Positions 59,612-62,152 of a stretch of DNA of 62,152 bases are shown here, piece by piece. Origin of the DNA: Rotaria sordida (taxonomy: Eukaryota); assembly GCA_905250005.1 (NCBI GenBank), contig CAJNOH010000088.1, positions 1-62,152 on the forward strand, in the 5' to 3' direction. The notes below the pieces were generated by a model. The model saw only the letters and a program-made list of their open reading frames with translations. It did no database searches and had not been told where the DNA came from. The translations under genes were made by a program, and so were the position numbers. Each line of letters begins with the position of its first letter. The stretch's first letter is position 1.

Positions 59612-60781
59612 ATGATTCCAATAACAAATTCTTCAATGAATAATTTAACTATTCCATTATCTTATTGTTTTCTTGATCGTTTAAATTTTTTTTTCAATCA
59701 TATTTATTTATTATTACTTACTGTAATTGGTTCAATTGGTAATACATTTGTTATTATTATTTTTTGTCAACGAGCATTTCGTACAAAAATTGGTTCGATT
59801 AATTCAAATATGTCTGTTTATCCATTTTTATTTTATATGGCTATATCAGATACAATGTATTTAATTATATTATTTTGTTTATGGTTATCAAATTATATTA
59901 ATGTTTTACATCGTCCAGTTATTTGTCAACTTACATTATATTTAACATATGTTTGTAATTTTATTAATGCTTATTATACAATAGCATTTACTGCTCAACG
60001 TTTATTTGCAGTTATTAATCCATTTCGTGTATCACATGTTCTTTCATGGTATCGTTCACGATTTTTATCATTATCAATAATAATATTTGCTTGTTTAATA
60101 TATTCATATTTACCATTTTTAATTGGTATTGTTAATGGAAAATGTTTTTCTCGTCCAGAATTTCGTTGGATAAATAAATATATGGATATAATTGATAGTA
60201 TTATTGTTTTTCTTATACCATATATTATTATAATAACAATGAATACAATTATTCTTATATCATTACGTCGTATGAAACATGATCAACATGAATTTCTATT
60301 TCGAACTCATTCACATTTAAATAGACGACGTGAATTAATACGTCGTAATGCATCACGTAAAATAACAAAATTATTATTAACTATTTCAACATCATATTTA
60401 ATTATATGTGCACCATATGCATCTATACATACATGGCGTTTATTAAATAATCGTCAACAAAATAAAAATTCACAATTAATTAAACAATTAGAACATTATG
60501 CACTTTTTATATATCATATATCATTTGCAATGAATTTTTATATTTATATTGTGTTGGATTCAAAATTTCGTCGTGAATTAAAACGTTTTTTTATAAAATC
60601 AAAACAAAATTTTTATCAATGTTCTCGACAAAAGAAATTTGTTGAAAATGACAATCAATTAGAATTAGTAGACAATAATTCTACAACAACAGTTGGATAT
60701 ACATTTCAAGGAAATCTACAAAATGTTAATCATAATCATAATCTTATGAGAAACTCTTGTTGTTGTCATATTCATTTGTAG
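59612..60781 (+). CDS. rhodopsin-like (class A) GPCR, intronless, 389 aa, orphan
   Basis: This is a single ORF with seven hydrophobic segments. TM1 is ..LLLTVIGSIGNTFVIIIF, with the GN motif. TM2 is FLFYMAISDTMYLIILF, with the conserved Asp. The end of TM3 is IAFTAQRLFAVINP, so Q-R-L stands in the D/E-R-Y position. TM7 is FAMNFYIYIVLDSKFRREL, so NFxxY stands where NPxxY is usual, followed by a basic helix-8-like stretch. The third intracellular loop is basic (LRRMKHDQHEF..RRRELIRRNASRKITK). AATAAA is at about 60823. Confidence 0.75.
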   Translation: MIPITNSSMNNLTIPLSYCFLDRLNFFFNHIYLLLLTVIGSIGNTFVIIIFCQRAFRTKIGSINSNMSVYPFLFYMAISDTMYLIILFCLWLSNYINVLHRPVICQLTLYLTYVCNFINAYYTIAFTAQRLFAVINPFRVSHVLSWYRSRFLSLSIIIFACLIYSYLPFLIGIVNGKCFSRPEFRWINKYMDIIDSIIVFLIPYIIIITMNTIILISLRRMKHDQHEFLFRTHSHLNRRRELIRRNASRKITKLLLTISTSYLIICAPYASIHTWRLLNNRQQNKNSQLIKQLEHYALFIYHISFAMNFYIYIVLDSKFRRELKRFFIKSKQNFYQCSRQKKFVENDNQLELVDNNSTTTVGYTFQGNLQNVNHNHNLMRNSCCCHIHL

Positions 60782-61103
60782 ATAGTAGAACATAACAAAA
60801 AAAAAAAACGAAAGAATGTGTTAATAAAATATTCTTAAGAGTAGTTATCTTTTCTTTCTTTATCTATTTTACGTTTGTATATATCTTTAAATGAAAAAGT
60901 TCTTATCATTATTTATTATCTATGATCTACGTAGATGGGTATAAGTATTTTTTTTTTAAGTATTTGTTTTATTCTATATTAAATTTATTTTTGATTCATC
61001 TAGCATTTGGTGCAAATTATCGGAAAATTTTAGAAATAAACGAAGAAGCAAAGGGTTTGCTAAAATATATTTGATCGAAATCTTGAGACTTTTTTTTTAA
61101 GGA

Positions 61104-62152
61104 ATGAATTCAAATAAATTTGAAGGTAATGGAATTCAATTTAAATGCAAAATTATTGGTATGAAAATTACAAAAAAAAAAAGGAAAATTTGAAGATATA
61201 ATTAGTTTTCATTTGACATAAAGGAATGGAATATTTACCAATTGATCGTGATGAACGCGTATGTCTTGAGTCAATGTTTAAACTTAAAGTTGTTGTACGT
61301 GCTCGTGGTGAACATAAACAAAAAATTCAATTAATTTTAACTATGAATGGTATTAAAGTTGTTGATGAACTTACTAAAGTATGAATGAAAACTTTTATTT
61401 TATTTTATTTTATGTTTTCTAAATTAAATTACTATTTTATTAGGTTGAAATTGCTAAACATGAACTTGTACGTATATCATTTGTTACTATGGATCCGAGT
61501 GATTCACGTGCATTTGGATATATTTATAATACAAGTGATGGTCGTCATCAATTTTGGGCTATTAGAACTGAAAGATCAGCAGTAGTAACAGTTCTTGCAT
61601 TGAAAGAACTGTTTGAAATAGTTTATCAACGAATTAAGAATTCCGAAAAGACTGAAACACAAACAAATCAAACAATATCTACGTCTGCTTTACCAGATAC
61701 ATCAACTCTTTCAATACAAGTAATGATAAATGAAATCTATTGTATTTATACAAATTTTTTTTCAGCAATCATCATCGACATCTAGTCCTGTTGTTACATC
61801 ACAGCCACCGATAATATCTGCAGAACCTGTTCCTCAACCAGCACAAGCGTCTAAAGTACGTATGATATTTTATTGTCGGTTTTTTAAATACAAATTAACT
61901 AGTAGATGCCTTTGTTTGATGATGTTTGGGGAGATAATCCTTCAACAACGGTTTCACAAACAATGTCAACACCCAAAGTATGTGTAATATTTTATTATCG
62001 ATCTTTTTAATAAAATTTAGCTAGTAGACACCTTTATTTGATAATATTTGGGGAGGTAGTCCTTCAACAACGGTTTCACAAACAACGTCAACACCCAAAG
62101 TATGTGTAATATTTTATTGTCGATCTTTTTAATAAAAGTTAGCTAGTAGACA
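61104..62152 (+). CDS. Disabled (Dab1/Dab2)-like PTB/PID-domain adaptor, 5' part (at least 6 exons; it continues beyond the window)
   Basis: Exons are 61104..61158, 61224..61378, 61444..61719, 61766..61855, 61906..61977 and 62028..62099, with a next exon beginning at 62150. The translation is MNSNKFEGNGIQFKCKIIG|MEYLPIDRDERVCLESMFKLKVVVRARGEHKQKIQLILTMNGIKVVDELTK|VEIAKHELVRISFVTMDPSDSRAFGYIYNTSDGRHQFWAIRTERSAVVTVLALKELFEIVYQRIK... Compare vertebrate Dab1: RFKGEGVRYKAKLIGIDEV...[40 protein letters not shown]...[59 protein letters not shown]. There is an in-frame TAA immediately upstream of the ATG. Confidence 0.8.
61856..62152 (+). repeat. tandem array of 122-bp exon+intron modules (at least 2.4 copies, cut by the window end) in the Dab gene
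   Basis: Module 1 is intron 61856..61905 plus exon 61906..61977. Module 2 is intron 61978..62027 plus exon 62028..62099. Module 3 starts with intron 62100..62149. The introns are gtatgtgtaatattttattRtcgatctttttaataaaaKttagctagtag. The 72-nt exons encode [M/T]PLFD[D/N][V/I]WG[D/G][N/S]PSTTVSQT[M/T]STPK, every unit in phase 0. Confidence 0.85.

Follow-up and report, generated by a model that had tools for sequence, protein, structure and literature searches.

What accounts for the run of closely similar introns and exons that closes a 62,152-nucleotide stretch of the genome of Rotaria sordida, a bdelloid rotifer, and what might such a run do for the protein that it encodes? The stretch, which we call the window, is positions 1 to 62,152 of contig CAJNOH010000088.1 (assembly GCA_905250005.1), and the run lies at its right-hand end, inside a gene for a Disabled-type (Dab) adaptor. 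Our reading, to which we give a probability of roughly 0.65, is that a lineage-specific tandem duplication of an intron together with its exon has lengthened the predicted disordered tail of the R. sordida Dab protein, and that each repeat would supply one more weak site of the FxDxF or DP[FW] class, most likely for the alpha-appendage platform of AP-2. On this view, the adaptor would hold to coated pits with an avidity fixed by the number of repeats, as happens with the DPF array of Eps15.

The repeat itself is plain to see. Tandem Repeats Finder (TRF) reports one strong array, at 61853-62152, with a period of 122, 2.5 copies, 88% matches and 0% indels. When the coordinates are parsed, the unit resolves into a 50-nucleotide (nt) intron (GTAYGT...TAGTAG) followed by a 72-nt exon in phase 0. 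These are the dimensions given by an earlier, sequence-only reading of the window, which also noted, correctly, that introns 2 and 3 differ at only 2/50 positions. Introns 1 and 2 differ at 10/50, and exons 1 and 2 at 8/72; both exons keep phase 0 and are flanked by TAG acceptors and GTA donors. Within the 62-kb window, where 0 chance matches are expected, a 39-nt core of the unit is confined to these two places, and the remaining five reading frames over the array are full of stops. Are the exons coding? The product spliced from the window, with two full repeat exons and the first codon of a third, is an exact 260-residue prefix of the 437-residue deposited protein P0021, which bears out the proposal that the exons are in-frame coding repeats of 24 residues each. 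The annotations from which such proteins come were produced by BRAKER, with RNA-seq of R. sordida as a guide (PMC7943196).

A detail of splicing may be mentioned beside the anatomy. The R. sordida module introns all end in a tandem acceptor, TAGTAG (61899-61905, 62021-62027 and 62143-62149). Were the upstream TAG used, the exon would open with an in-frame TAG stop, so that the downstream acceptor must be chosen accurately.

Which gene carries the array? Spliced at GT-AG sites, the upstream exons match the Pfam family PID (PF00640, E=2e-7, above the curated cut-off), and the closest relatives of the product are R. sordida 'PID domain-containing proteins', at 95-98% identity. Against the sequences of the PDB, the PTB domain so encoded matches Dab2 (2.7e-30) and Dab1 (3e-29), with GULP (6e-9), ARH (8e-8) and Numb (1e-5) about 20 orders of magnitude behind, and the attribution of the array to a Dab gene, which had been made from the letters of the window, is thus borne out. 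A regular-expression scan of the tail of P0021 finds DPW at residue 291, DLF at 341, NPF at 414 and three copies of Fx[DN]xW. The AlphaFold2 model, built on an 8-sequence alignment, has a mean predicted local distance difference test score of 33, which is too poor to lean on, and it has no secondary structure after residue 163; disorder of the tail is consistent with this low-confidence model, and no firmer than that.

A related issue is how far the array extends, as it had been described as at least three copies that continue past the window, at the 3' end of the gene. The flanking DNA was reached through the gene that lies upstream of Dab, which encodes a receptor, at four R. sordida loci (L003-L006) with 10-kb flanks. 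L003 and L006 match the window exactly over its final 2541 nt, while L004 and L005 represent a second haplotype, about 99.4% identical, in which module 1 reads TPLFDD.... TRF finds 2.8 copies in total in all four loci, and a count of the modules gives exactly three, in the same structure, in four deposited assemblies and two haplotypes. Three copies thus stand; their continuation does not. The third exon is 156 nt long (TPLFDNVWGDSPSTAIPRPLRTAQQLSTSNVDPWNISEPMLPTIQPTSRVED) and resembles exons 1 and 2 over its first ~42 nt only, after which it runs into unique sequence, and this third 'module' is the constitutive ancestral exon. The position at the end of the gene must also be given up. After the third exon come a 57-nt intron and a large exon with DLF, a 21-base-pair (bp) QQTPFVP repeat and NPF; at least two exons follow the modules, which make up roughly residues 212-283 of the 437, and the gene runs on for about 1.1 kb. 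The array is in the middle of the coding region.

Two further observations concern this same tail. The 21-bp repeat (QQ[TA]PF[VF][PS]; L003 12909-13000 and L004 12916-13028, ~1.05 kb past the end of the window) is present in 4.4 copies in the haplotype of the window versus 5.4 in the other, a difference of one 7-residue, phenylalanine-containing repeat. There are also two C-termini among the R. sordida models (L003 13058-13244), one reading through to ...NPFGDFSSKSPTAKTVLFTSNITN and the other spliced as ...NPF|DQMNICN|IVNKGKYQ, with two further small exons.

How did the array arise? Homologous arrays are found in Rotaria sp. Silwood-1 and Rotaria sp. Silwood-2. Between these species the non-repeat exons are 83-89% identical, and module 3 of R. 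sordida compares with the last Silwood-1 module as orthologues do, with 86/83/80% identity over the intron, the 5' part of the exon and the 3' part of the exon. Within the arrays of Silwood-1 and Silwood-2, intron identity is only 60-84%. Since modules of one array are so unlike, the array must be older than the split of R. sordida, Silwood-1 and Silwood-2, and general concerted evolution is ruled out as an account of it.

Why, then, are introns 2 and 3 of R. sordida so alike? Module 2 is 96% identical to module 3 in the intron and 93% over exon nt 1-42; over exon nt 43-72 it is 97% identical to module 1 and 50% to module 3. At the informative sites, module 2 follows module 3 at 13/14 as far as unit position 82 (or 86, in haplotype B), and it follows module 1 at 14/14 from unit position 93, with 4-5 private changes; the breakpoint lies at exon nt 33-42. 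This pattern indicates that module 2 was made by an in-register unequal exchange between modules 3 and 1 of a two-module array, or by an equivalent 122-bp duplication. The recombinant module is present in both haplotypes and is ~5% divergent from its parents, between the allelic divergence (~0.6%) and that between species (11-17%). The likeness of the two introns had been put down to very recent duplication or to concerted evolution. A recent event it was, as introns 2 and 3 are similar because module 2 recently recombined from modules 3 and 1; general concerted evolution falls away. Mosaic likeness is also seen in the sister species, where Silwood-2 modules 1 and 3, and Silwood-1 modules 1 and 5, are 90% alike in the 3' part only, which suggests that such exchanges recur.

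The founding event is harder to read. The last 30 nt of the exon directly upstream of the array match the internal modules at 16-17.4/30 nt, where the background maximum is 15.4 (493 windows). The 3' 30 nt of the internal exons match nt 43-72 of the last module at 14.5-17.1/30, and they match the corresponding stretch of a bdelloid orthologue from a metagenome (L014, described below) at 21/30 by manual count. A founding duplication that spanned the junction of the upstream exon with its intron would account for the first likeness, but the last module does about equally well, so that either register may be right. In the clade of R. sordida, Silwood-1 and Silwood-2, the intron and the first 72 nt of the ancestral exon became the 122-bp unit. 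Each extra unit, in phase 0-0 and with its own splice sites, adds a 24-residue repeat with the core F-x-[D/N]-x-W-G, and copy number is 3 in R. sordida, 4 in Silwood-2 and 6 in Silwood-1, against 1 in Adineta vaga. Module 2 of R. sordida is a recent product, its 5' portion derived from module 3 and its 3' portion from module 1.

What do other bdelloids have at this place? A protein search with the tail alone finds no match outside R. sordida, Silwood-1 and Silwood-2. A. vaga and the Logan contig L011 each have one intron followed by one motif-bearing exon, and the ancestral bdelloid state is thus a single intron and a single exon of this kind. L014 is a different case. It shares with R. sordida the gene and its synteny, the homologous 52-nt intron and the motif in three copies, and its exon 3 is 77% identical to that of R. 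sordida; its repeat, however, is a 78-nt (26-codon) unit without an intron, lying inside one exon (FDNIWGDSPSTTVSQ...), different in unit and in register. The three motif copies read FDNIWGDSPSTTVSQPLQTSQQQVK, FDNDAWGDSPSITVSQPLQTSQQPLK and FENDAWGLSEP. The L014 array is therefore an independent, parallel expansion of the same motif by another route, and the motif-bearing segment has been multiplied twice independently, once with its intron (122 bp) and once without (78 bp). Two candidates were set aside in this survey: the PID proteins P0014-P0016 of R. socialis, taken to be a paralogue because their locus has different neighbours (nicastrin) and no tandem repeat, and the metagenome-scan contig L013, a GC-rich, bacterial-looking chance match.

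Does the array bear the mark of coding sequence under constraint? All 10 internal exons of the three Rotaria species are exactly 72 nt long and free of stops, the introns are 47-52 nt, and GTA donors and YAG acceptors are found in 13/13 modules. In the encoded repeat F4, W8, G9, S13 and K24 are invariant or nearly so, the F, W and G of the motif being kept in 12-13/13 modules. The ratio of nonsynonymous to synonymous differences (pN/pS), taken from pairwise counts that are phylogenetically non-independent, comes to 0.52 in the motif codons and to about 1 in the others. Such a pattern would be expected if the segment were disordered and constraint fell on a short linear motif only.

If a motif is constrained, what does it bind? 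DP[FW] and FXDXF are established ligands of the AP-2 alpha-appendage platform, with affinities of 30-120 uM, and Dab2 is a clathrin-associated sorting protein (CLASP) (PMC5694535). The Dab2 tail has a disordered region of ~500 residues with DPF and NPF, and Eps15 has 14 DPF motifs that act multivalently (PMC12370899). The repeated exons had been called reminiscent of such DPF, DPW and FxDxF motifs, and comparison with other loci lends the likeness some support. The orthologous site of A. vaga is PSLFDDAF, in which FDDAF is a perfect FxDxF; that of L011 is DDPFGDNPF; Silwood-2 has DDPWG in one module; and a conserved DPW lies ~25 residues downstream of the motif in the same (third) exon, in a tail that has the DPW, NPF and DLF already mentioned. 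What does not hold, in all but one of the Rotaria modules, is canonical form. Epsin has DPWGGSP-like repeats, which are near to the rotifer D[ND][VI]WG[DG]SP; a literature search for DPWGG returned irrelevant papers only and did not confirm this. A search of PDB sequences with the repeats found nothing meaningful, that is, no relatives of solved structure. We would put at about even odds the claim that each module adds a weak, putative docking site for endocytic proteins and that avidity would follow from copy number.

Several points weigh against a reading in which the repeats are endocytic sites whose number matters. The core F-x-[D/N]-x-W-G is a canonical member of neither class. FxDxF is found in 0/13 Rotaria modules, as the residue at position 5 is W in 12 and S in 1 and that at position 3 is N in 6, and DP[FW] in 1/13 (Silwood-2 module 2), the others having V, I, T or A for P. 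Outside the motif codons the pN/pS is about 1, and in one Silwood-1 module, module 5, F and W have both been lost (TVLCDDVSG), which suggests that constraint is relaxed on single copies. Inclusion in mRNA rests on deposited gene models, some of which omit one module, and short-read assemblies could have collapsed further near-identical copies. Might copy number simply drift? The modules would then be translated, and copies would be gained and lost as a by-product of recombination in a tolerant, recombination-prone linker, their number having no selected effect. The ratio near 1 and the damaged Silwood-1 module favor this, as do copy numbers of 3, 4 and 6 among close relatives, the mosaic similarity between modules and the haplotype difference in the 21-bp repeat of the same tail. 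Yet F, W and G are retained, the motif codons have a pN/pS of 0.52, the same motif has been multiplied by another route in L014, and other bdelloids have a canonical endocytic motif at the homologous site; we regard neutral drift as somewhat unlikely. The motif might also be functional with another partner: EH domains, the mu-homology domain (muHD) of FCHo, the clathrin terminal domain or some other module with an aromatic pocket; or the STPK-TP segment might be a site of phosphorylation. The departure of the core from both alpha-appendage consensus motifs would be explained; the Eps15 EH domains are promiscuous and accept many motifs that contain phenylalanine, DPF is bound by the FCHo muHD (PMC12370899), and every module junction creates TPKTP. 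Against such a partner stand the orthologous FDDAF and DDPF, which are textbook alpha-appendage motifs, and we think it unlikely that the partner lies elsewhere.

A different question is whether the modules act as cassette exons, the inclusion of one to three in-frame modules giving Dab isoforms of different motif valency. That alternative inclusion is likely had been part of the sequence-only reading, and two-module models do exist. Deposited R. sordida products with three modules have 412, 419, 437 and 444 residues, and there are products with two, P0001 being without module 2 and P0002 and P0003 without module 1. As every module is in phase 0-0, skipping one keeps the frame; P0002 and the 419-residue product are both on 156831-bp contigs and probably represent two isoforms of a single model that drew on RNA-seq hints; and the Silwood-2 model skips an intact module 3. 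The models are mutually inconsistent, however. The skipped module differs between assemblies annotated from the same RNA-seq, and the 3' ends of exons 1 and 2 are so alike (in haplotype B their last 33 nt are identical, and in haplotype A their last 30 nt agree at 97%) that short junction reads can be misplaced. The RNA-seq may also derive from a strain with another copy number, and the Silwood gene models were built with RNA-seq of another species. The evidence is ambiguous, and use as cassette exons is a possibility that we doubt. The deposited products, which carry two or three modules at once, rule out mutually exclusive use. Finally, could the array be a mis-assembly, or its 'exons' untranslated intronic or satellite sequence? 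Assemblies from short or linked reads can collapse or expand 122-bp repeats. Here, four assemblies and two haplotypes agree on three modules, which makes an artefact very unlikely, and homologous arrays are present in two other species; the internal exons are open and exactly 72 nt long, while indels are found in the introns; the repeats are part of the deposited protein; and Rfam has no match in the array, of which the other frames are closed. This explanation has largely failed already, and we give it hardly any weight.

Table 1. Positions of the array, of its host gene and neighbour, and of homologous loci. Positions without a locus handle are those of the window.
Feature	Position (strand)	Structure	Product or remark
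Module 1	61856-61977 (+)	intron 61856-61905, exon 61906-61977	encodes MPLFDDVWGDNPSTTVSQTMSTPK
Module 2	61978-62099 (+)	intron 61978-62027, exon 62028-62099	encodes TPLFDNIWGGSPSTTVSQTTSTPK; recombinant
Module 3, start	62100-62152 (+)	intron 62100-62149, first codon ACA at 62150	remainder beyond the window (TPLFDNVWGDSPSTAIPRPLRTAQQLSTSNVDPWNISEP...RVED)
Module 3 intron and 156-nt ancestral exon	L003 12489-12694		L003 coordinate = window coordinate - 49611
Exon directly upstream of the array	61766-61855 (+)		encodes QSSSTSSPVVTSQPPIISAEPVPQPAQASK; last 30 nt resemble the 3' part of internal module exons
PTB-domain exons	61102-61158, 61224-61378, 61444-61719 (+)	two 65-nt introns between
Dab 5' coding exons	60935-61054 (+)	ATGG initial exon 60935-60938, 65-nt intron, exon 61004-61054
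Upstream single-exon 7TM receptor gene	59612-60781 (+)	389 residues	not part of the array; synteny anchor
Rotaria sp. Silwood-1	L001	six modules	TRF 5.8 copies, 71% matches
Rotaria sp. Silwood-2	L007	four modules in the DNA	the third, though intact, is not in the deposited protein
Silwood-2 module 3, intact	L007 4872-4995	52-nt intron and 72-nt exon TPLFDDVWGGSPSTAVSQTILVPK	absent from deposited P0005
Adineta vaga	L008	one ~51-nt intron, then one exon	exon starts PSLFDDAFTLGDTP...DDWLG; receptor-Dab synteny kept
Logan contig	L011	same exon structure, one module	exon starts PSLFNDDPFGDNPFG...VDIWDL
JGI metagenome contig Ga0116229_10028254	L014 1456-1223 (-)	52-nt homologous intron, then 234-nt exon	bdelloid Dab orthologue, same synteny

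The 5' end of the Dab gene is the least certain part of the gene model. Splicing of 60935-60938 to 61004-61054 reproduces the N-terminus of P0021; other deposited models use an alternative start at 61104 (MNSNK...). Two sub-threshold, snoRNA-like Rfam matches fall in this neighborhood, at 61025-61105 and 60811-60857 (ceN28 with 22 bits against a gathering score of 70, and SNORD46 with 19 against 40), and both are most likely due to chance. The receptor protein encoded immediately 5' of Dab matches Pfam 7tm_1 and is encoded identically on 7 deposited contigs. The order of the intron-less 7TM receptor gene and Dab is kept from Adineta to Rotaria (the window, L001, L007, L008 and L014), and in Rotaria the downstream neighbors, HIT/DcpS, Cript, cyclophilin and an MFS transporter, are conserved as well. 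In Silwood-1, the intron that follows the last module holds a ~490-bp palindromic element like a miniature inverted-repeat transposable element (L001 6681-7173), with 150-nt arms that are 92% complementary. The element is not in R. sordida, where that intron has 57 nt, and it appears to have split the Silwood-1 model into products of 377 and 103 residues.

Why might such a small array be of interest? The evolution of short linear motifs is usually told as gain and loss by point mutation. Here, the copies of a probable endocytic motif change by whole exon-intron modules, with a recombination breakpoint that can be read directly, a single-copy outgroup, a series of 1, 3, 4 and 6 copies, and an independent expansion without introns. 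The locus is thus a small, tractable system for asking whether the valency of clathrin-adaptor motifs is selected or drifts. A bolder proposal, which we rate as quite improbable, is that bdelloids may have, in F-x-[D/N]-x-W-G, an AP-2 appendage motif of their own, its valency in Disabled rapidly and repeatedly adjusted, through the 122-bp modules in one Rotaria clade and the 78-bp repeat in another, and perhaps tuned by skipping. Were it true, the 1, 3, 4, 6 series would be a natural one in which to ask how motif number sets adaptor avidity, and the locus would offer a datable unequal exchange, in register, from a lineage long considered asexual.

How does the R. sordida array compare with what is known? 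It is a fresh example of known phenomena, as tandem exon duplication and multi-copy appendage motifs are both well known. Like mammalian Dab2 and Dab1, the rotifer protein has a PTB domain of the Dab type at its N-terminus and, after it, a long tail with DPW, NPF and DLF-type motifs. In the Dab family, the PTB domain binds NPxY cargo tails and phosphoinositides, and the adaptor is recruited to coated pits. The rotifer protein differs in being short (about 412-444 residues) and in that its main repeated motif is non-canonical and encoded by duplicated exon-intron modules. The array of Eps15, with its 14 DPF motifs, resembles it in having many weak aromatic-acidic motifs in a disordered region, where they provide avidity for AP-2 and other partners (PMC12370899). 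Eps15 and epsin are not homologous to Dab, however, and the rotifer array, with its 3-6 copies, is both small and young in evolutionary terms. As in the tandem exon duplications that have been reviewed (PMC9013439, PMC9741552), the exons are adjacent, equal in length and alike in phase, and have been duplicated with a flanking intron, the splice sites being kept. The best-studied duplications are mutually exclusive, one exon substituting for another within a folded domain, whereas the R. sordida copies are additive and lengthen a predicted disordered tail; and the origin of one R. sordida module can be pinned to a specific recombination breakpoint.

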